From assembly GCF_050920415.1 (NCBI RefSeq), contig NZ_CP169309.1: a stretch of DNA of 64,000 bases, one strand, 5' to 3'. Below the pieces are notes generated by a model. That model was not told where the DNA came from. It made no database searches and saw only the letters and a list, made by a program, of their open reading frames with translations. This stretch comes from Escherichia coli (GTDB lineage Bacteria > Pseudomonadota > Gammaproteobacteria > Enterobacterales > Enterobacteriaceae). The position numbers and the translations under genes were made by a program. Below, piece by piece: positions 396-64,000 of this stretch. Positions within the stretch are counted from its first letter, which is position 1; each line of letters begins with the position of its first letter.

Positions 396-1253
396 TTAAC
401 CCGCTATACTCGCACTCGTCGGCCCTGTTTCAATACTACCCACAATATCAATAATGTGACCCCAGAACATATCATCATCGTTATAATATAATGAATAATC
501 TCCATTATAATCCATAGCCAACTCAACAAGATTTATTCTGCTAACAAACATATCTTCTGTAATTTCTTCATCTTCTTCATCTTGAAGCCAGTCATTGGCC
601 AATTCAGTTAATTGTTCTGCAGCATATTGGCGGAACTCCTGATCTTTTTGTTGCATATGACTACATAAAAATCGCAGATTTTCAAAAGCCTGTTGCCAGG
701 TATATCTATCATTCTTATCTACTTCCATAGATACAGAAATATTCTGATCATTCCATTTCACTTCCCCGCTAAAACAGGAGTAGTCTTTATTAAGCACGAA
801 AGTCCCCAATTGCTGATCTTCAACAACAACTGGTTTGCGATATTCTTTCTGAATATTGAGCAGTTCCTCACACTGAACATGACTTTCAAGAACCTCAAGA
901 ACATAAAACCGATTATAAAACTCGGCTAACTTTCCTTCCGGCACGGTCCTGTCAATCAAATCTCGTACTCTCAGGCGATATATACCACCAGACTGCATAT
1001 TAAACGGCCACGCACAGCCTTGAGTTTTCTCATTTTCTTCTGTTATCAACCAGTTGAGTCGTCCATCTCCAACGTGAATTTCTCCCGTAGTCAGACTCTT
1101 CCAGGCGAGTAAGTGTTCAACCGCTGTCCAGTAATTATCACCGTTACTCTTACCCGCGCCACCGCCAGTATCACTAAGAAGAACGATAATTTCTTCTTCT
1201 GTATCTTTAAATGTATGACTAAATTTTTTGTATTCTTCAGAATTTAAGTCCAT
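396..1253 (-). CDS. hypothetical acidic protein (285 aa) in an AT-rich islet downstream of hrpA
   Basis: Intact 285-codon ORF with ATG start; surrounding 1..1400 is visibly AT-rich compared with hrpA; acidic C-terminal region (DEEDEE); no family recognised from sequence alone. Confidence 0.45.
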   Translation of the reverse strand: MDLNSEEYKKFSHTFKDTEEEIIVLLSDTGGGAGKSNGDNYWTAVEHLLAWKSLTTGEIHVGDGRLNWLITEENEKTQGCAWPFNMQSGGIYRLRVRDLIDRTVPEGKLAEFYNRFYVLEVLESHVQCEELLNIQKEYRKPVVVEDQQLGTFVLNKDYSCFSGEVKWNDQNISVSMEVDKNDRYTWQQAFENLRFLCSHMQQKDQEFRQYAAEQLTELANDWLQDEEDEEITEDMFVSRINLVELAMDYNGDYSLYYNDDDMFWGHIIDIVGSIETGPTSASIAG

Positions 1254-10814: not shown

Positions 10815-10978
10815 TCCTTGATAATTCGGTTTGCGCTATGGTGCATCAATTCCCCTTACGGAGATATCGCAACACGCCGCTTCATTAAAAATTCAGAATA
10901 TATCAAGGTATTGGGGACTCACTGCCAGGAATGATTATCCCCAATTAATCAAATGGTTAAGAAACATTACGTTGTGGA

Positions 10979-13291
10979 TCAATACAACTCATCAAGTTTT
11001 CTCATCGCTTGTTCCCGTATTGCGCGCGTCTTACCGTTAAGCGCCAGCTGGCGAACTAAATCCAGTTCAGGGTTAACAAGCTCTAACGCCAGCAAAGGAT
11101 CACGTTTCAGCCTCGCCTTTAATACATCAACTGGAAAACGGGGATTATTCATCGCCACAATCCACCACTCGGGATCAATTTCTGCCGCCAGTGCCGCAGG
11201 GGGGGTGTGGCGGTTGCTAAGTGCGCCGAACTTGAAAAATGTGAGATTGCTTTTCGCCAGTGTACTCCACCATATACGATCCGGTTGTTTTGCCAGTACA
11301 TCCAGTTGTGCTAACGCATCGGGGTCGAGTGCATAATAAACACGTAACGCTTCGTTAACCTGCGCACGGGAGCTGTTTTCCTGCCTCAGAAAAAACTTCG
11401 CCCAAATATCATTGCGTGGCGTGTTTTTCTGTAATTCTTTGAGAACAACAGCGGGTAAATTATCCCAACTAATTAATGCACTCTCTAAAAAGTCCCAGTC
11501 GTCCGAACGTATCAGAGAGGTGGCATTTAATAGCATCTGGTCATCAACTTCACCGTAGCTGATAAGCTCAGACAAAATCATATCAGCGCTGGTTTCATAT
11601 GCATCTGAATCTGCTTTGGGATTATTTTTCCGATGCGATAAAGCACGTTGCCAAATTTTTTGTTTCATCGACGTGCTCAGATACTGATTTTTCGCCAGAT
11701 TACTCCACCCCTCAGGATCGTTGAAACGTGTCAATAATCGTTGTAGAGCAGCGTCAGAGTGAATTACCTGCATATCCCGACAGCAAAAGTAGGCAGGGGA
11801 TTTTTTCTCCATCCTTTTAACAAAATTAAACTGTAAGTTATCTGGCAATGCTAAAAATAACACACGTATTAGATCATCGTCATTCTCGAATTTTTGGTAT
11901 AAATATACTGCAACTTTGTCACTCTCTTGTGGCGTCATCCGCAACAATTGACCATGGTGTTTCATCTCTGCCAGCTTTGACGCTAAGCTTGTGACAACAT
12001 CGTTTGATGAATCGTTCGCCAACTGCATTGCCTGATTGTAGGTGAGTTGTCCTCCAGCACCGACCTGACGAATAGAGGGATCATCACTGCGGATATAGCC
12101 ATCAATAATGGATTCGGGCAATAACCACGCATCTTTATAAAGCTCCTGAATGATCATATCCCAATCTCTTTTCGCCAGAGTCATGACGATATCCAGAGGG
12201 AGATTTTCACGTAGCGCAAGATTCAACGGACCGACACCATCAGGTAGATGACTCATTCGCGTCATTATTTCGACAGAGAGCGGTTCACGGTCGAGCAACC
12301 CCAGAACAACAGGCTGGTAACCCAATTGCTGATCGGTCAACTCCAGAATCTCATTGTCAGGCATATATCTCGCCATACTTGCAATCGTTTGTCCATCATT
12401 GCTATTAATAAGTTGTTTGCGTAGGTTAGCTGAAATTCCTTTAATCCTTGGGAGAGTTCGCATTATGGCAAGATCAAATGTCGCAATATCTCGTCCTTCA
12501 AATGCAGCAACGTTGCCTTCATCCAGCATTTGCAATTCCTGCACTAACTCAGGAGAAGGCTTAGGGCGAAACAGCGCTTCTTTTTTCATCAGATTACAGA
12601 TATTCCCTGCCATGCGAATATTGCTTCGCTTAAAAATTTCTTTCAGAGCATCTTCATCATTTATTAGACCCCAATAATATGCATCAGGATTTATTATCAT
12701 CAGCGCTTTTTTGACATTTTCAGTGTCATTTTTATCACTCGCACGGACCATGAATTCACTATTTGTCGAAGACGCAACAACAGGTGCAATTATGTCATTG
12801 ATAAATATCCCACGCGCATTAATACTCCCCTTAATCGTAGACGGATTATCGTAATATGAATCGATAAATACCAGTCCACTTGCATTTATCGAACCGGTAA
12901 TTAACAGTGGTGAATCTGTAACTATATTCGTTGCCGTCACGTTACCGAGAATAACCCATGGATTAGAAAGAGAGAAAGTGGAAATATTACCTTTGACTGT
13001 CAAATTGCCAAGAACAATCAATTTTTGATTACTCTCTATATTACCTTCTACCACTAAATCGCCACGATGCACTTTCCAGTCCGATGCAGATAAACCGAAG
13101 GGGACAAGATTCACGCTACTGTTGATAGCTTGTTCAACTTGCTGTTTATCTTCAGCGGTAGCCGCAGATAAAAATGGATTAATATCAACTGCATTTGCAA
13201 CACATCGAAGTTCCGCCTGTACTGGAAGACTCAGGATAAACAGGGGAAGTAAACGTATCCAGCCGCAAATCCTGGCCTTAAACATATGCAC
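10979..13291 (-). CDS. ydbD: secreted protein YdbD
   Basis: 770 aa ORF with N-terminal signal peptide; position and length match YdbD. Confidence 0.8.
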   Translation of the reverse strand: MHMFKARICGWIRLLPLFILSLPVQAELRCVANAVDINPFLSAATAEDKQQVEQAINSSVNLVPFGLSASDWKVHRGDLVVEGNIESNQKLIVLGNLTVKGNISTFSLSNPWVILGNVTATNIVTDSPLLITGSINASGLVFIDSYYDNPSTIKGSINARGIFINDIIAPVVASSTNSEFMVRASDKNDTENVKKALMIINPDAYYWGLINDEDALKEIFKRSNIRMAGNICNLMKKEALFRPKPSPELVQELQMLDEGNVAAFEGRDIATFDLAIMRTLPRIKGISANLRKQLINSNDGQTIASMARYMPDNEILELTDQQLGYQPVVLGLLDREPLSVEIMTRMSHLPDGVGPLNLALRENLPLDIVMTLAKRDWDMIIQELYKDAWLLPESIIDGYIRSDDPSIRQVGAGGQLTYNQAMQLANDSSNDVVTSLASKLAEMKHHGQLLRMTPQESDKVAVYLYQKFENDDDLIRVLFLALPDNLQFNFVKRMEKKSPAYFCCRDMQVIHSDAALQRLLTRFNDPEGWSNLAKNQYLSTSMKQKIWQRALSHRKNNPKADSDAYETSADMILSELISYGEVDDQMLLNATSLIRSDDWDFLESALISWDNLPAVVLKELQKNTPRNDIWAKFFLRQENSSRAQVNEALRVYYALDPDALAQLDVLAKQPDRIWWSTLAKSNLTFFKFGALSNRHTPPAALAAEIDPEWWIVAMNNPRFPVDVLKARLKRDPLLALELVNPELDLVRQLALNGKTRAIREQAMRKLDELY

Positions 13292-57773: not shown

Positions 57774-58511
57774 TCAACCTACCTTGCTTGATCCTGGAAA
57801 ACATGAGATCGGCAATGGATTTGGACGCGGGAAACGCAAGCGACAACCGCTTAGGCGGTGGCTGCACCTGTCTAATGTTGGATCGTTTGTCGGCTCGTCT
57901 TTGTCTGTAGCAACTGGCCCGCCAGAGTACGCACAGCCATCACCTCTATACTGCCACTGGCAAACGTCAGCAAGAATGGTGCGGCCTGGGATCACCGCCT
58001 TATCTGCATCAATTGGCGTTGACAACTCATATTGCACCTGATCCGCTGTTTCTTCACTCATGGCCTCTATAACGTAAAAGGACACCGCCTCAATAGATGG
58101 ATCAGCGTCAGGATTGCCATTTGGGAAGTTAACAGCGTCAAGGTATTTCACTTCCACCTGGCGGCGCGTAACCTTCATGCCTCGAAGGTCGTTATAGTCG
58201 GTATTCATCCCGGTAATGAGTCCGCCAATGTTTGCTACAGCCATTTGAGGGCGAGAATAAACTCCTTCGTTTTTCATTTCGAAGCCAGTAGCCTCGATTG
58301 GATAGCTGTTATAAGCCACGCCCTTCCAGATGACCGGACCGTAATAACCATTCGCGCCGGAATGGAAGCGGACAACCTCGCCACCAAGGGGAGTAAGGTC
58401 CAATTCGAACAAGTCAATGATTGCGCCGACTCCCGCATCGACGGAATCAATAATCATCTCTGTAGGTATATTGCGCATTTTATCACCTTGTTGTTTTGTG
58501 ATCTGCATCAC
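57774..58511 (-). CDS. phage minor tail protein L
   Basis: Recognisable similarity to lambda L (e.g. RRQVEVKYLDAVNFPNGN, QWQYRGDGCAYSG, C-terminal Cys cluster); exact start uncertain. Confidence 0.85.
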   Translation of the reverse strand: MMQITKQQGDKMRNIPTEMIIDSVDAGVGAIIDLFELDLTPLGGEVVRFHSGANGYYGPVIWKGVAYNSYPIEATGFEMKNEGVYSRPQMAVANIGGLITGMNTDYNDLRGMKVTRRQVEVKYLDAVNFPNGNPDADPSIEAVSFYVIEAMSEETADQVQYELSTPIDADKAVIPGRTILADVCQWQYRGDGCAYSGGPVATDKDEPTNDPTLDRCSHRLSGCRLRFPRPNPLPISCFPGSSKVG

Positions 58512-58616
58512 ACCGTGAATGCCAAAATGGATTGATAGCGTGATTTACAATATGTATATTTTACTCAAACGAACGGTAGTAAACAAAATGGCACAGTTTG
58601 GAACAGGATAGGACAC

Positions 58617-58775
58617 TATGAGATCCGCAAAATACGCAGAAAAAGTTTTCGTTGAAGTGAAAGGCGACATGAAAAAATTTATGGATGTTCTTATCAAAGA
58701 GATGGGAAAACCGTTCCATATAGCCGAACGTCAGTATTACGCTTGCAAGGCTAATAGCTACAACAGATACGCATG
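58617..58775 (+). CDS. moron ORF C1 (52 aa), unknown function
   Basis: First ORF of a compact plus-strand cassette inserted between tail genes L and M. Confidence 0.4.
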
Positions 58776-58798
58776 ACAATAAACACAAAGGTAACACT

Positions 58799-58891
58799 AT
58801 GCAAAAATATCGTCTTGATGTGTGGATGGCTGGAAATAAAGATTGGGAAGGTTTCGGATTATTTGACAGCCGCGAACTGGCTAACGACTAA
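58799..58891 (+). CDS. moron ORF C2 (30 aa), unknown function
   Basis: Short ORF with AAGG SD in the same cassette. Confidence 0.3.
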   Translation: MQKYRLDVWMAGNKDWEGFGLFDSRELAND

Positions 58892-58972
58892 GGGGAAAAA
58901 CTTGTTAACTTCTTTGGACGGGCCAGGGAGTTTTAAGTAACCCCGGTACAGATAGAAAATAAGGTGGAAGAG

Positions 58973-59152
58973 ATGAAATACGATATTGATAACGACGCTT
59001 GCTTTAAACAAAACTTTGCGGATTCTATGGATCAGTCTTGCCCTGAAATACACGCACACGGTTTCCCGGCAGATAATCCAGACATGAAACGCGAATACGA
59101 AAAAGCGGCGAAAGATTTCTGCATCGACAATCTGGGCGCATTCGATAGATAA
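58973..59152 (+). CDS. moron ORF C3 (59 aa, acidic, Cys/His-containing), unknown function
   Basis: ATG preceded by AAGGTGG; track ORF 58964..59152. Confidence 0.5.
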   Translation: MKYDIDNDACFKQNFADSMDQSCPEIHAHGFPADNPDMKREYEKAAKDFCIDNLGAFDR

Positions 59153-59161
59153 GGCGGCAAT

Positions 59162-59410
59162 ATGGCGAGGCGAAAACATAGCGATTATATGTACACGCTG
59201 AAGCAGGCCGCCCGCCTTATCGGTTATCATGAACACGAATTTATTGATTTGCTGATTGAGCGCGGGATTTTATACCAGGTCTGTTTAACGCTGTACCCGA
59301 AAGCGAAATACTTGCAGGAAAAGTTATTCATCATCATGACGGATGAAAACCAGGTTAATCACTCATTCGTCACTGCCAAAGGCGTTAATTATCTGCGCGA
59401 TAACTTATAG
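59162..59410 (+). CDS. moron ORF C4 (82 aa), putative HTH-containing protein
   Basis: ATG preceded by AAGGCGG; segment TLKQAARLIGYHEHEFIDLLIERGIL resembles a helix-turn-helix. Confidence 0.5.
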   Translation: MARRKHSDYMYTLKQAARLIGYHEHEFIDLLIERGILYQVCLTLYPKAKYLQEKLFIIMTDENQVNHSFVTAKGVNYLRDNL

Positions 59411-59420
59411 GTGACAGATT

Positions 59421-59537
59421 ATGAAAATAGAAGTTTTGGCGCTAATAGTAATGGGATTGATAGTATTTGGTGTTCATGCTGTAGATCTGGACTGGAAAAC
59501 GATAGCAGAAAATATAGCGTTAATGGAAATGGAATAA
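59421..59537 (+). CDS. moron ORF C5 (38 aa), small hydrophobic membrane peptide
   Basis: ATG preceded by AGGTGA; single predicted TM helix (LALIVMGLIVFGV); followed directly by a terminator. Confidence 0.4.
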   Translation: MKIEVLALIVMGLIVFGVHAVDLDWKTIAENIALMEME

Positions 59538-59541
59538 TAAT

Positions 59542-59560
59542 AACCCCGCTTCGCGCGGGG
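59542..59560. terminator. intrinsic terminator closing moron cassette C (possibly bidirectional)
   Basis: CCCCGC-ttcg-GCGGGG hairpin followed by TCGTGTTTAT. Confidence 0.65.
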
Positions 59561-59566
59561 TCGTGT

Positions 59567-59752
59567 TTATACGCCATCAAGTAAAAATAAAACTTCCTTG
59601 CCTTCTCTTGATCTGCATCCTACATAACCGTCACCCATGTCATGAAGATACCAGGTCTCACCATTATCAGCTTTTACAGTAAGATCGTTGATTTCATAGT
59701 CGTCAAACAATGTAAAAGCGCCCGTGCGGTCCACTACACAAATAGCATACAT
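59567..59752 (-). CDS. small phage protein (61 aa) between M and L, unknown function
   Basis: ORF starting MYAICVVDRTG with SD GGAGG; start lies 14 nt 3' of the M stop on the same strand. Confidence 0.45.
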   Translation of the reverse strand: MYAICVVDRTGAFTLFDDYEINDLTVKADNGETWYLHDMGDGYVGCRSREGKEVLFLLDGV

Positions 59753-59765
59753 ATTGACACCTCCA

Positions 59766-60119
59766 TTAATTGACAACTTGCTCAAAAGTTGCGTTTAGCG
59801 TGTACAAAGACCCGTCTTTAGTCATGCTCCATCGGCGGCAAACAAAAAGCCTTTGCACGTTATCCATCGACGGCGACCAGTAAAAAGCCTCGACCGCGCC
59901 GCGCGCCCTCAAGAATGCTTCCGCCTGGATTGCTACGTTTTCACCATCACCACATCCGGCGCTACTGCCTTTAAATACCAGGGTGTAGCTATCAAGCAAT
60001 GGATTGATACCTTTTACCTGTCTTTGCTCATAACCATCGCCCAGCTTAACAACGGATACGTCCGGCTCCCTGGTCACGCTGTAGCTTCGTTGTGGCGTCC
60101 ATCTGAACACTTCCGGCAT
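59766..60119 (-). CDS. phage minor tail protein M
   Basis: 117 aa; similarity to lambda M including FRW near the N-terminus, GDGY.QR, and identical C-terminal FEQVVN. Confidence 0.88.
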   Translation of the reverse strand: MPEVFRWTPQRSYSVTREPDVSVVKLGDGYEQRQVKGINPLLDSYTLVFKGSSAGCGDGENVAIQAEAFLRARGAVEAFYWSPSMDNVQRLFVCRRWSMTKDGSLYTLNATFEQVVN

Positions 60120-60308
60120 AAAACCCCCATAAGTTACATTTTGTATATATCTTTACGCGCTTCTACGCGAAAAATAAGATCTTCATCACAATGATTATAG
60201 CTAGTTTACAAAATGGCTTCACATAGCACACAACAAGATGTATATAAAAAGCAAGAAGAAAAGCAGTACCAACGAAGGAGGCCCAAAAATGAAACGCTAT
60301 GAGTAGTA

Positions 60309-60443
60309 ATGCTAAACAACGCATTCGAACAAGTGGAAATAGCAATCGTTAAGGGTTTCGACGACGCATTTAAATACGGTCAATTCATGATTAATGCAAA
60401 AGAAGATGAATACCGTGATTTCTTCCTGAAGGCTCTTAATTAA
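60309..60443 (+). CDS. moron ORF B1 (44 aa), unknown function
   Basis: ATG 2 nt after the stop of a 5-codon mini-ORF (MKRYE) that has an AGGAGG SD, suggesting translational coupling. Confidence 0.35.
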   Translation: MLNNAFEQVEIAIVKGFDDAFKYGQFMINAKEDEYRDFFLKALN

Positions 60444-60462
60444 GAATAATCGGGGGTGAGCT

Positions 60463-60717
60463 ATGAAACTGGTAGCGATTGACAAAAACCTGAAAGTACA
60501 GAAAAACGCACAGGACCGGATTATCAAGAAAGGTAAGGAACTGCTTAAAGCATTTTTGAAGAAAGAGGCGCGCCCCAAAAAGTTACGCGATGGTTATGGC
60601 TTTAAATTCGATATCAATCATGACTGGCGGCTGTTCAGCGAAGACCTCAAAGTCTGGTTAATAATCGATCACCTGGAATATAACAGGCACTGCGGGGTTA
60701 AAGGGGCGCATAAGTGA
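60463..60717 (+). CDS. moron ORF B2 (84 aa), candidate RelE/ParE-superfamily (HigB/Gp49-like) toxin
   Basis: ATG with SD GGGGGTGAG; basic N-terminal helices and C-terminal RDGYGFKFDINHDWRLFSEDLKVWLIIDHLEY pattern resembling the RelE/HigB beta-sheet core; assignment by pattern recognition only. Confidence 0.5.
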   Translation: MKLVAIDKNLKVQKNAQDRIIKKGKELLKAFLKKEARPKKLRDGYGFKFDINHDWRLFSEDLKVWLIIDHLEYNRHCGVKGAHK

Positions 60718-60725
60718 GGCGGGAT

Positions 60726-60818
60726 ATGGAGGACGATAAATTCACCTGGCGGGAGATCTGGAATATTTGGTTGGTGATGTTTTCTCGCAGCTATATAGCC
60801 AGAAACGGAAGATTGTAA
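60726..60818 (+). CDS. moron ORF B3 (30 aa), unknown function
   Basis: Short ORF with SD (GAGGCGG) abutting B2. Confidence 0.3.
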   Translation: MEDDKFTWREIWNIWLVMFSRSYIARNGRL

Positions 60819-60836
60819 TTTGCGGAGGAAAATAAA

Positions 60837-61013
60837 ATGAAAAACCCGGCAAATAAAAGCAATGTAAAACGTATAGCCTGGATCGTGAAATGGATGGATA
60901 GTAAAGGAGACACATATACTGAACCATTTTTCAAACATACTGATGCAGTATTTGCAAGAAGCGTAAGAGGCGGGAAAATTGAAAGAGGATATACAAGTTT
61001 TGAGAATAACTAA
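60837..61013 (+). CDS. moron ORF B4 (58 aa), unknown function
   Basis: ATG with GGAGG SD; followed by a strong terminator. Confidence 0.45.
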   Translation: MKNPANKSNVKRIAWIVKWMDSKGDTYTEPFFKHTDAVFARSVRGGKIERGYTSFENN

Positions 61014-61020
61014 AATATAA

Positions 61021-61050
61021 CCCCGGCATTGTACCGGGGTTTTGTTTATT
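61021..61050. terminator. intrinsic terminator closing moron cassette B, overlapping the 3' end of the tape-measure gene
   Basis: CCCCGG-cattgta-CCGGGG followed by TTTTGTTTATTT. Confidence 0.8.
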
Positions 61051-63385
61051 TGCGGCGCGGTTGCAATATTCCCCCTGGTCTTTGTGATTCCCTTGTTATC
61101 ATTTTCATTGCCACACGTTCCATTGTTTGTTCAAGTCTGCGGCTATCTTCGTCGCTAAATCCGTTTGTGGTCTGAATGTTAATATTGACAGGCATACTAA
61201 TACCGCCGCCACCAATATCACGACCAGGTATAACCCTGCCATTCTCGCCAGGAATCATGTATTGATTGCCGTTAGACGTCTGGAATAGCTCCGGCCTGTT
61301 GTGTTCCCCTACACGGTACATGTTGCCACCAATGACGCTACCACCATTAAAGCGCCCGCCGCCGAAAATGGATGTTGCCAGTGACATGATCGCAGTAAGC
61401 GCCGCCGAGCCAGCCGCCGCCCAGCTACCGCCAGTTGATGCCGCTGTCGCTGCCGCCGCCGGGGCCGCCGCCGCAGCAATGCTTCCCTGAGCGGCAACCG
61501 CGCTTGCCGTTGTGCTGGCCTGCGTGGCCTTGCTTTGTGTCTCCATCATGATTTGATCTGCTATCCAGTTGGCAGCTATGTCCGAAAGTCTGTTACCGAT
61601 ATTCCCAAGTATATTGCTTCCTAAGTTAGCAAAAACATCACTTAATGATTGAGTGCCGTTTAGCAGGCCAACAAGGGCGTTACTCATACCACCTTTAAGG
61701 CCATTAACGCAATCACCGATCAGGCCGTTAGTATCGCTTTGCGCCTGCCATTGCTCCCATTTTAGATCGCGAATCTGTTGCTCATAGGCCAACAATTCCT
61801 GTTTCTGTTGCGCTTCGGTAGCGCCCAGGTCTATAAGCATTTGCTTACGGACGGCCCATTCATTTTGCGCCTGCTGGATGGGGTCAACTTCGCCTTTTAG
61901 CTGGTCCATCGGGCTAACTATTTGCGACCATTTATCACGCAATTCATCTACCGGAATTTGTGCTAACTCTTCTTTTAGCTCCTTGCCGATTCCCTTTTGA
62001 GCGGCGCGGTATTCAAGGAGTGTAATTTTCCCCTGGGCGAATGCAGCATCAATGGCCTTGCCGTTCTCTAACGCTTTGCGCATGGCGGCTGCGTCTTTGT
62101 TGTACTGGTCAGAAACGCTTATGCCTTTGTCACCAAGCCGATCAGCTTCAGTTTTCTTCTCTTTTTTCTGTTTTTTCGGCTTGTCTACTGGCTTGTCGAA
62201 TCCGGTAATAGTTCCGTCATTGGCGGCATTCTGTTCACTTTTCCTTGCTTCTTCTGTAGCCTGGATTGCAGCGGTCAGATCATCCTGTAATTGCATGACC
62301 TTACCAACGGTCTTACCATATTTCTTCTCATAGTTGCTGTCGTATTCGTCGGTTTGTTCTCCTACCACCTCTTTCATCCATTTGTAGCCGTCCATTAGCG
62401 CTTTGATTGGTGTCACCATTGCGATGATCTTCTCTGCCACCTCACCAGCCTTGATTCCGACATCCTCAAATATATCAATGAATTCGCTGCCAGCCGTCTT
62501 CAGGGTGATAAAGCAGGTTTTAGCGAAATCAGCACCATCACCTAAAGCCTTAACACCTTTCGTGACAAGATCGATACCAGCAACAACCGTATCGGATACA
62601 CCAAAAAGATCGTCCAACTGTTCGACAAGCCCCATAACTTCGACTTTAAGCTCATTCAGGGCCATACCGGATGTGCGCGGCAACTGCGCGAACTTCTCGT
62701 TTGTTTCCTGCGTAGCCGCCTGGATTGCGTTAACCATCCTTTCTGCCGTGATCTTACCGTCCAGCATTTCGGCGCGGAATTGGCCCATAGATAACCCCAT
62801 CTGGCGGGCCATTGTCTGTACGATGGTCGGGGTGTTCTCTAACAGGCTATTGAATTCTTCAGCACGAAGCACGCCGCCGTCGATAGACTGACGGAATTGA
62901 CGCATTGAGTTTGACATCTGCTCCGCAGATGCGCCGCCCAACGCCCCCATTTTCTGAATCGTACCTACCAGGTTAAGCAATTGCCCTTCAGTGGCGGACG
63001 TGTTCTTCAGGGAGATAGCCAGGCCTTGCCACAGATCCCCGGTATCCTTCATGCTTTGGCCTGTTTCTTTTGATATTGCTTTCAGGCCGTCGAAAACCCG
63101 CCCGGCGGACTCCGCATCGCCCGTAAGCATTTTGATTTTTACGCGAAGCATTTTTGCTTGCTCCGCCATATCCATAAATTGGCGCACAGCCTCCGCAGCA
63201 ATTAGCAGATGGATAACCCTGGTTAGTGCTTTGATTGATGTCTTCAGTGTGTTTACCTGGCGATCTGCCTGTTTAGCACCGCGCTCTATACGGTCAAAGG
63301 CCTGGTCTGCCTGTCGTTGTGCTACAAGAAGTTGTCCTGTTTTTGCGTCAACTTCGTAATAAATTGTGCCTACACTGGTAGCCAT
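61046..63385 (-). CDS. phage tail tape-measure protein (lambda H-like)
   Basis: 779 aa, alpha-helical and Ala/Gly-rich, Gly-rich C-terminal segment; located upstream of M. Confidence 0.88.
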   Translation of the reverse strand: MATSVGTIYYEVDAKTGQLLVAQRQADQAFDRIERGAKQADRQVNTLKTSIKALTRVIHLLIAAEAVRQFMDMAEQAKMLRVKIKMLTGDAESAGRVFDGLKAISKETGQSMKDTGDLWQGLAISLKNTSATEGQLLNLVGTIQKMGALGGASAEQMSNSMRQFRQSIDGGVLRAEEFNSLLENTPTIVQTMARQMGLSMGQFRAEMLDGKITAERMVNAIQAATQETNEKFAQLPRTSGMALNELKVEVMGLVEQLDDLFGVSDTVVAGIDLVTKGVKALGDGADFAKTCFITLKTAGSEFIDIFEDVGIKAGEVAEKIIAMVTPIKALMDGYKWMKEVVGEQTDEYDSNYEKKYGKTVGKVMQLQDDLTAAIQATEEARKSEQNAANDGTITGFDKPVDKPKKQKKEKKTEADRLGDKGISVSDQYNKDAAAMRKALENGKAIDAAFAQGKITLLEYRAAQKGIGKELKEELAQIPVDELRDKWSQIVSPMDQLKGEVDPIQQAQNEWAVRKQMLIDLGATEAQQKQELLAYEQQIRDLKWEQWQAQSDTNGLIGDCVNGLKGGMSNALVGLLNGTQSLSDVFANLGSNILGNIGNRLSDIAANWIADQIMMETQSKATQASTTASAVAAQGSIAAAAAPAAAATAASTGGSWAAAGSAALTAIMSLATSIFGGGRFNGGSVIGGNMYRVGEHNRPELFQTSNGNQYMIPGENGRVIPGRDIGGGGISMPVNINIQTTNGFSDEDSRRLEQTMERVAMKMITRESQRPGGILQPRRK

Positions 63386-63536
63386 GATTTAACCTCATGC
63401 AAAATGTGATCTATGCATCTATTTTATACAAAATGTCTTTATTTTAACGATACCGTTTTGTATAGATGATGTAGGGAAAGATAGAAGAGATGCAGGAAGG
63501 ACGGATGTCCCGGAGGAAGTGAAAGAGGATAAGGAA

Positions 63537-63620
63537 ATGAGAAACGTAAACTACCGTCCCAACGAATATGAACGCTATGCGGACCTTATCGAAGAAATGT
63601 TAAAAGCACTTAAAAAATAA
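63537..63620 (+). CDS. moron ORF A1 (27 aa), unknown function
   Basis: Short ORF with purine-rich SD upstream of the secreted-protein gene. Confidence 0.25.
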   Translation: MRNVNYRPNEYERYADLIEEMLKALKK

Positions 63621-63687
63621 ACAATATGCGTGTATAACTAAGTTAAAGGAAGCATTTAGCAAATCAGAATAATTACAGGGGTTGATT

Positions 63688-64000
63688 ATGAAACGGTTAG
63701 CAAAAATGGTACTTGCTGTGATTGCTGCACTGGCATTTAACGCGAACGCTAACGAGGCCATAAACATTAACTGTGAAGAAGTGGCAAACCATGTAGCCGC
63801 ATATCACGACATGATCAAAAAAGAACCAGCCGCACCCACAATTCTTTTTAAGGCAATTGATAAAAATTTTGAAGGGAAACCAGTTTGTGCTCGTTGGTTT
63901 AATTATGGCCTTGTAAACGAGGCTGCTGTAGGCGTAGTCTTTGAAAACAACAGCGAAATAAAAAACAGGATAGCTAACGAGTGTAAAGCAAATAAAGTTG
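63688..64000 (+). CDS. moron ORF A2, secreted Cys-containing protein (partial, runs off window end)
   Basis: ATG at 63688 with SD (AGGGG); cleavable signal peptide MKRLAKMVLAVIAALAFNANA; no stop before position 64000. Confidence 0.55.
   Translation, partial: MKRLAKMVLAVIAALAFNANANEAININCEEVANHVAAYHDMIKKEPAAPTILFKAIDKNFEGKPVCARWFNYGLVNEAAVGVVFENNSEIKNRIANECKANKV

Follow-up and report, generated by a model that had tools for sequence, protein, structure and literature searches.

What is a group of small genes doing on the plus strand between tail genes L and M of an Escherichia coli prophage, against the direction of the tail genes themselves? The locus lies in a 64,000-nt stretch of an E. coli genome (NCBI RefSeq assembly GCF_050920415.1, contig NZ_CP169309.1), referred to below as the window, and had been presented in a preliminary description, made from the sequence alone, as an insertion of five genes, C1 to C5. 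Our analysis confirmed tightly packed plus-strand genes between L and M, on the strand opposite to the tail genes. Their number, however, is four and not five, since C2 and C3 turned out to be fragments of one 117 aa gene broken by two TAA codons, and the resulting cassette of four genes is fixed family-wide rather than being an insertion private to this prophage. Since GenBank already contains the genes and the phage family has been published, the existence of the cassette as such is not new. New are its organization as a fixed four-gene operon, a conserved CRP-type promoter, the paralogy between the protein usually encoded at the first gene position (slot 1) and the N-domain of gene 2, a candidate nested start within gene 2, and the split form of this gene found here.

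The left 47 kb of the window are E. coli chromosome (dgcM, abgR, and smrA matched at 100% identity), and the tail end of the prophage occupies the window from about 49 kb onward. A search of 50,697 phage records resulted in DNA-level relatives (81–86% identity) only among phages mEp010, mEp013, mEp021, mEp044, mEp515, mEp554, and MagusPhagus, and the prophage belongs to the temperate siphophages of the mEp021 type (mEpimmI). Similar prophages were found in 34 of 5,426 complete E. coli genomes. The mEp021 group, named "mEpimmI" in 2025, consists of non-lambdoid, Nus-dependent temperate siphophages, which are reported to be as common as lambdoid phages in human gut E. coli and most of whose prophages are reported not to be inducible by UV (PMC11893012). 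The near-core gene list of these phages includes a "KilAC-like antirepressor"; the same paper names only this protein and does not describe the operon, promoter, or function of the L-M cassette (PMC11893012).

For comparison, 56 related loci were collected, namely seven from annotated phages or genomes, five from an exact-protein look-up, and 44 from viral contigs, giving 57 copies together with the window. All 57 hold the cassette between L and M in the same order, in an interval of 1170–1888 bp, so that the synteny proposed earlier as a check was found, while the idea of a one-off insertion had to be given up. The order is promoter, slot-1 gene, gene 2, KilAC gene, an optional gene for a hydrophobic peptide, and a GC hairpin terminator, which adjoins a conserved converging gene for a 61 aa protein (phrog_3249). 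Variation across the copies is limited to single genes: the type of slot-1 gene, an optional 75 aa gp72-type gene between gene 2 and the KilAC gene (5 of the 57 copies), an optional 67 aa insert after the KilAC gene in some copies, and the peptide. The 67 aa protein ('MLKYDGQK...') lies between the KilAC gene and the peptide in L005, L014, L016, and L032, at about 920..1120 of the L-M interval, and variant cassettes also harbor a 58 aa protein ('MKEGVTYQHV...') after the peptide (L019, L032) or a 78 aa protein upstream of the KilAC gene (L043).

In the window, gene L had been thought to start near 58511. Most probably, it starts at ATG 58478, preceded by the Shine-Dalgarno (SD) sequence AAGGTG at 58484..58489, as annotated in relatives, while the alternative GTG 58511 (the call of the open reading frame (ORF) finder) falls within a CRP-like box. 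With this start, the L-M interval extends over 58479..59765, i.e., 1287 bp. The GC content of the cassette is 41.2%, compared with 48.4% for I-K-L, 50.8% for M, and 50.3% for H. Gene 2 and close relatives of C4, the KilAC protein, were found in the searched phage records only in the seven mEpimmI phages. Altogether, the anatomy of the cassette is well supported.

Whether the plus-strand or the overlapping minus-strand ORFs are the real genes had been set as the test that could overturn the whole description, and the plus strand was upheld. Pooled pairwise ratios of non-synonymous to synonymous polymorphism (pN/pS) were 0.11 for C1, 0.12 for the KilAC gene, 0.18 for the 38 aa as well as for the 45 aa form of the peptide, and 0.34 for gene 2, with 0.44 in its N-terminal and 0.21 in its C-terminal half. 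Purifying selection acts on all four plus-strand genes throughout the phage family. In a six-frame control, frame +1 alone was free of stops in all sequences, whereas the antisense frames revealed stops in relatives and mostly ratios >1. Frame -2 shares its third codon positions with the real frame and gave 0.22–0.32, yet with about 1 to 5.7 stops per sequence. Comparison with L008 (GCA_902844055), the closest copy with an intact gene 2, showed eight synonymous and one non-synonymous change in C4, as against no synonymous and six non-synonymous changes in the minus-strand ORF 58859..59236. Given the stops in relatives and these ratios, this ORF and a second one on the minus strand (58561..58797) were rejected as genes. 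The same holds for a 30 aa ORF at 58519..58611, which begins upstream of the predicted -35 element, overlapping the promoter, and is not maintained as such in relatives (seven codon changes compared to L008, five of them non-synonymous, and a shifted stop position). SD-like sequences can be read at each plus-strand start, as had been claimed.

Slot 1 is occupied in the window by C1 (58618..58776, plus strand; 'F1a' type), encoding a basic 52 aa orphan protein with an isoelectric point of 9.5. This type occurs in eight of the 57 copies, and the other 49 carry an unrelated 51–55 aa protein of the "MDDKVWRLTVF" type. C1 was found in only six clusters among 5.8 billion proteins, all named ones being from E. 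coli, and had no match in Pfam, PHROG, NCBIfam, or PADLOC. The common slot-1 protein and the N-domain of gene 2 are paralogous (hhalign probability of 92%, E 6e-7, full length), while C1 is unrelated to either of them and to a 51 aa protein encoded between M and H (hhalign probability <1%). In L005 and L006, the common slot-1 protein is called a 'transporter' by PGAP (WP_097446393.1, WP_086611599.1), a name which looks like an artefact for a soluble-looking protein paralogous to that domain.

Gene 2 (58799..59152, plus strand; 354 nt, phrog_38567) is split in the window into the fragments 58799..58891 (C2) and 58973..59152 (C3, 59 aa) by in-frame TAA codons at 58889 (E31*) and 58934 (K46*), numbered relative to L008. 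The intact 117 aa allele of L008 (P0079) is 96.9% identical to the window sequence without gaps, and all 51 relatives sampled without bias carry an intact gene of 115–120 aa. As for the composition of C3, the three cysteines described before are there, but the several histidines amount to only two. AlphaFold2 predicted a beta-beta-alpha-beta fold for the N-domain (residues 1–51) with pLDDT >90, while the C-terminal half remained <60; being the best conserved part of the gene and yet poorly predicted, this half may be a segment that folds on a partner. Gene 2 revealed no Pfam match and no real sequence match in the PDB.

The 59 aa C-terminal ORF of the window (WP_244577336.1) was found on 14 contigs and the 30 aa fragment on six. 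In L009–L012 (4001..4353; E. coli assemblies, Logan contigs), a 1-nt frameshift in the N-terminal region of gene 2 leads to ORFs of 46 and 59 aa, and an allele of this type is present on at least 14 contigs. Thus, with the double ochre mutation of the window and this independent frameshift, the N-domain has been lost at least twice, and the 59 aa ORF was kept each time. Within gene 2, an internal SD sequence (AAGGTGG) followed by ATG 58973 (58961..58975, plus strand) is a candidate nested start for the 59 aa product. The arrangement (A/G)AGGTGGAA-N5-ATG upstream of the internal methionine is kept in 50 of 52 loci, and no synonymous variation was detected among 42 distinct sequences at K55 (AAG in 26/26), V56 (GTG in 40/40), and E57 (GAA in 41/41), while three codons are used at Val50 for comparison. 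This suggests a nested start that yields the C-terminal peptide of gene 2 alone, and such a start would explain why N-terminal knock-outs are tolerated.

The third gene, C4 (59162..59410, plus strand), encodes an 82 aa stand-alone KilAC/ANT winged-helix protein. The helix-turn-helix predicted for it before proved correct, whereas the statement that no cassette protein matches a nameable family did not: hmmscan resulted in a match to Pfam PF03374 (ANT/KilAC; i-Evalue 2.3e-7, 31.6 bits) that covers residues 7–82 and positions 20–105 of the 108 in the model. A weak match to phrog_63 (anti-repressor Ant) was also obtained, and PGAP gives relatives of C4 the ANT/KilAC name. The structural model (pLDDT 86.6) revealed the order strand-helix-turn-helix-wing-helix-hairpin-helix, a winged helix of the MerR/Xis type, and its fold matches the C-domains of phage antirepressors. 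At the sequence level, C4 can be aligned to the C-terminal domains of antirepressors, 264 aa Bro-N proteins among them, and its distant relatives P0130 and P0133 are two-domain proteins of 264 aa. Though PF03374 is usually fused C-terminally to Bro-N, KilA-N, AntA/AntB, or Rha and C4 consists of the domain alone, stand-alone forms such as CreP are known, so that C4 is not barred from the family. An exhaustive HMMER search with C4 against 1.84 billion cluster representatives yielded four distant relatives, too few for a deep alignment. A PDB sequence search with C4 gave no real match, and a profile of the C4 family gave only a weak hit to the eS10 winged helix (E 0.4).

With respect to activity, the KilAC domain of Listeria AriS is by itself sufficient to inhibit the SOS response (PMC9043618). 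CreP, a CRISPR-repressed KilAC-only toxin of 103 aa from Acinetobacter baylyi ADP1, has a bacteriostatic effect and makes E. coli cells filament, and its co-immunoprecipitation resulted in a weak FtsZ band, which may reflect a direct or indirect association (bioRxiv 10.1101/2024.01.05.574328). By analogy, C4 is likely a host-directed effector, to which the other small proteins would be accessory.

The spacer between L and gene 1 is better conserved than the genes downstream of it. It contains a predicted sigma-70-type promoter (TTGATA, 17 nt, TATATT; 58532..58560, plus strand; 10 of 12 matches in a consensus scan), both hexamers of which are invariant or nearly so in 42 distinct sequences, with an A-tract, CCAAAATGG (58522..58530, plus strand), just upstream of the -35 element. 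Further upstream lies the palindrome TGTGATCTGCATCACA (58497..58512), which resembles a box for the cAMP receptor protein (CRP). Its core, TGTGATCT..ATCACA, is the only TGTGA-N6-TCACA match in the 64 kb (0.07 expected), and TGTGA-N6-TCAC is found at the same place in 55 of the 56 loci, with fixed half-sites and four variable central bases, as is expected of a CRP site. Folded as RNA upstream of L, the palindrome is an unexceptional hairpin (z 0.28), and this reading was rejected in favor of a DNA site. When transcription is assumed to start near 58567, from a -10 element ending at 58560, the box (centred at 58504.5) lies at about -62.5, close to the -61.5 of class I CRP sites at sigma-70 promoters, which may also lie one or more helical turns further upstream; this is a class-I position as in lac.

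At the other end of the cassette, the CCCCGC/GCGGGG hairpin noted earlier as a terminator was found at 59543..59561, where it folds stably on both strands (-18.3 and -17.8 kcal/mol) and resembles a bidirectional intrinsic terminator. Most relatives retain it next to the stop codon of the 61 aa gene, with a loop that may have either orientation, and the annotation of mEp021 calls it a two-way terminator. It is predicted to end both the cassette transcript and the converging transcript of M and the 61 aa gene. No RNA family was detected by Rfam within 58300..61100.

What the operon does, and when, we infer from these features. We read it as a moron-like, low-GC, self-contained accessory operon that runs against the late tail genes, is transcribed by host RNA polymerase, and is probably catabolite-controlled, and we would put the probability of this reading at roughly 50%. 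Host RNA polymerase would transcribe the cassette independently of late transcription, with cAMP-CRP activating the promoter from its class-I position, which would switch the unit on under glucose scarcity, in the lysogen or soon after infection. Opposing late transcription, antiterminated by Q, would override it. The KilAC protein would act as an effector on host physiology, the 59 aa C-terminal part of gene 2 would still be made from the conserved internal SD-ATG, and the small peptide C5 would be inserted into the inner membrane or exported across it.

Several points weigh against this reading of the operon. A unit found in every member of the family is not a moron in the strict sense of presence or absence. 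Promoter, CRP site, and terminator are predictions from sequence, and the spacing from CRP box to promoter varies by 1 bp among relatives, with the transcription start being assumed. The synonymous conservation at the internal start of gene 2 runs into the next codons and may mark the edge of a recently exchanged conserved block. Since C4 is only 30–40% identical to the KilAC domains of full-length antirepressors and is linked to AriS and CreP through the domain family, the transfer of function to it is weak. Finally, a motif in the leader, of the ACAAAATGG type, could be the operator of a phage regulator, so that the unit might be repressed in the lysogen.

This leader motif, TAAACAAAATGGC or (T)AAACAAAATGGC (58580..58592, plus strand), is conserved in all aligned relatives. 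The form ACAAAATGGC is over-represented, with three occurrences in the window (0.36 expected) and five in mEp021 (0.25 expected), and (T)ATACAAAATGG / ACAAAATGGC, frequently arranged as inverted pairs, sits at the leader or promoter of each antisense unit in the tail module. Its positions are 58583, 60208, 52093, 60136 (minus strand), and 63425/63453 in the window, and 11925, 20076/20143, 37647/37675, 42049, and 43921 in mEp021 (L057). The motif could be an UP-like element or the operator of a phage regulator, in either case a candidate shared regulatory site, and it is the main uncertainty about the timing of operon expression.

Taken as an operator, the motif leads to the alternative that survives best, though we hold it to be rather unlikely: the cassette as an early lytic host-takeover unit that is repressed in the lysogen via this motif and switched on soon after infection or induction, with the KilAC protein as a Kil-like division inhibitor or toxin and the small proteins modulating it. 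The sharing of the motif by all antisense units of the tail module fits this explanation, and downstream of the mEp021 repressor gene, ACAAAATGGC also immediately precedes the -35 element of a promoter-like site (ATTGAC, 18 nt, TATATT). That match is short, however, and is not kept in the L-M promoter of mEp021 itself, and when operators of the repressor Rep021 were sought in mEp021 10850..12330, no clear repeated operator was found. The activity of CreP also fits, as do P1 KilA and phi11 gp07, which are cited as division inhibitors (bioRxiv 10.1101/2024.01.05.574328), and a lysogen expressing such a protein constitutively would pay a cost for it. Against this, the near-consensus CRP box points to control by a host signal over pure immunity control, and low GC content together with packaging between promoter and terminator are classic marks of morons expressed from prophages.

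A more far-reaching form of the moron-like reading, which we consider speculative and unlikely, would be a family-wide host-manipulation unit switched by cAMP-CRP, in which the KilAC protein acts on a host factor such as RecA/SOS or FtsZ and the nested 59 aa peptide is the part of gene 2 that matters. If true, it would link the nutrient state of the host to prophage stability and could help to explain the mEpimmI prophages that are not inducible by UV.

The fourth gene, C5 (59421..59537, plus strand), brings in another explanation. It encodes a 38 aa peptide with one strongly hydrophobic segment, as described before, at about residues 5–19 (hydropathy maximum 2.65), a conserved V/A-H-A motif followed directly by V/A-D, and an acidic tail, and may represent either a signal peptide that is cleaved or a membrane anchor. 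Its exact sequence was found on 49 contigs. The 38 aa form is present in 21 copies and a 45 aa form in 16, so that 37 of the 57 copies harbor the peptide and 20 have none. The suggestion that C5 is holin-like is unlikely, as holins are encoded beside an endolysin in the lysis cassette, while C5 lies between the KilAC gene and the terminator in the tail module, and the holin, lysozyme, and lysis genes of mEp021 (gp46–48) are located far away.

The preliminary description had also seen in the cassette a possible defence or exclusion module. In such an anti-phage defence or superinfection exclusion system, the membrane peptide, helped by the other products, would block DNA entry or abort infection. 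The location recalls the tail-region moron of HK97, whose gp15 is a small inner-membrane protein that excludes superinfecting phage, and C5 is conserved, hydrophobic, and under purifying selection, with a ParE_like gene in the neighboring slot between M and H. The peptide has no PHROG match, however, and is absent from the 20 copies while the rest of the operon is kept there. A search of PADLOC-DB 2.0 resulted in no match at E <= 1 for C1, gene 2 (intact or as the C3 fragment), C4, C5, or the 61 aa protein, the tested proteins of variant cassettes likewise had no match, and no cassette protein matched NCBIfam. The gene set is fixed across the family and not variable like that of a defence hotspot. 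Moreover, the exclusion proteins tested for these phages are lipoproteins, namely mEp021 gp81 and mEp010 gp116 (PMC11893012), and mEp021 gp81 lies outside both the L-M and the M-H cassettes. A defence function is therefore without direct support, and we regard it as improbable.

Even less convincing is a role of C4 as a lysis-lysogeny regulator, either as an antirepressor binding the CI-like Rep021 or as a DNA-binding regulator acting on the conserved motifs of the cassette promoters. The Pfam family is named for antirepressors, winged helices of the MerR/Xis type are typical of DNA binders, and within the 50 kb examined of the 54.7 kb mEp021 record, no product other than C4 is annotated as an antirepressor. 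What exactly the two Pfam domains associated with antirepressors, AntA/AntB and ANT/KilAC, do is still unclear, though (PMC9043618), and C4 has none of the N-terminal domains (Bro-N, AntA, Rha, or KilA-N) of characterized antirepressors. Apart from that, a site on the opposite strand inside the late tail operon would be unusual for a gene of the immunity circuit.

That the cassette is decaying junk, i.e., a non-functional remnant gathering disabling mutations, is very improbable: it would fit the two nonsense codons in gene 2, the frameshift in the first gene of the M-H cassette, and the separate lineage with a frameshifted gene 2, but every cassette gene is under purifying selection family-wide, changes in C4 relative to the closest intact copy are synonymous with one exception out of nine, promoter, CRP box, and terminator are intact, the reading frames of tail genes J, I, K, L, M, and H are uninterrupted in the window, and the 59 aa C-terminal ORF remains intact in either truncated allele.

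Of the genes flanking the cassette, L (57774..58478, minus strand) encodes a tail protein of 234 aa (TIGR01600, 228.7 bits), for which relatives annotate a gene of 705 nt, and M (59766..60119, minus strand) an M-like minor tail protein of 117 aa (phrog_14; PF05939 detected on the L008 homologue). The acidic 61 aa protein (59567..59752, minus strand) is encoded by the last gene of the converging M transcription unit and lies outside the cassette, as had rightly been noted. Its gene is present in 57 of 57 copies (PHROG E 1.7e-21) with a strong SD sequence, GGAGGTG, read from sequence; the protein has no Pfam match, its sole family being the function-less PHROG. The tail module of mEp021 comprises three antisense units, gp63, gp65–68, and gp71–74, and its annotation places terminators beside all three of them, on both sides only in the case of gp63. 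Since mEp021 also encodes a Q-like late regulator, late read-through across these units is plausible. In the window, an inverted TATACAAAAT(G/C)G pair was observed just upstream of the start of the tape-measure gene (63385), within 63386..64000, at a location corresponding to the third antisense slot (gp63 type) of mEp021.

A second antisense cassette is located between M and the tape-measure gene (60120..61045). It consists of a 51 aa gene (ATG 60290), a gene for an 84 aa ParE_like protein (PF24732, 60463..60717), a 58 aa gene (60837..61013), and a terminator-like hairpin near 61020..61045. Among the 57 sequences, the 51 aa gene was detected in 55 and the ParE-like gene in all. The window combines an intact ParE-like gene with a 51 aa gene whose frame is shifted by a 1-nt deletion near 60303, which is odd if the two form a toxin-antitoxin system.

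That the L-M operon is kept in every sampled mEpimmI phage suggests that it contributes to the fitness of the phage or the lysogen. Host-directed activities of the KilAC family, such as SOS inhibition and division block, have been shown only recently, and with a CRP-controlled KilAC protein in E. coli, the target of this domain would be easy to search for. One could likewise examine with this operon whether host stress responses are adjusted by prophages to the nutrient state. For annotation, two short "genes" become fragments of one, and the tail module of the mEp021 group is seen to carry fixed antisense units. Most would be gained by learning whether E. coli lysogens have their SOS response or cell division modulated by a CRP-switched KilAC protein.

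Among known systems, the closest in design are phage morons such as lambda bor and lom or the tail-region moron of HK97 with gp15; the concept reportedly goes back to Juhala, Hendrix, and colleagues. Like these, the cassette is extra DNA between structural genes that are adjacent in lambda, with its own promoter upstream and terminator downstream (both predicted in silico and conserved), a base composition unlike that of its neighbors (41% GC versus 47–51%), and small genes of accessory type. Unlike morons, which vary in presence among close relatives, it is found in 57 of 57 family copies, has four genes instead of one, and carries a near-consensus CRP box.

With CreP, C4 shares the architecture of a stand-alone KilAC domain of about 100 aa without an N-terminal partner domain, and AARLIGY and TAKG can be read in its sequence as counterparts of the cited 'AKxLxL' and 'TxKG' motifs. 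C4 is the shorter of the two (82 aa versus 103 aa). While CreP is under the control of a CRISPR effector, C4 belongs to a phage operon behind a predicted CRP-type promoter. The ANT/KilAC domain (PF03374) is also common to C4 and AriS of Listeria phage phi10403S, P1 KilA, and phi11 gp07 (PMC9043618), which, unlike C4, carry N-terminal AntA/AntB, Bro-N, Rha, or KilA-N domains. C4 shows 30–40% identity to KilAC domains of Gram-negative origin, and the results on AriS come from a Gram-positive host.

The nearest counterpart is gp71–gp74 of mEp021, which, together with the equivalents in mEp010, mEp013, mEp044, mEp515, mEp554, and MagusPhagus (MH706966, PP180001-5, PP925836), is the same operon at the same place. 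Compared with these phages, identities are 88–95% for the KilAC protein and 59–62% for gene 2, and the operon of the window differs from gp71–gp74 in its rarer C1-type slot 1, the 38 aa form of the peptide, and the broken gene 2.

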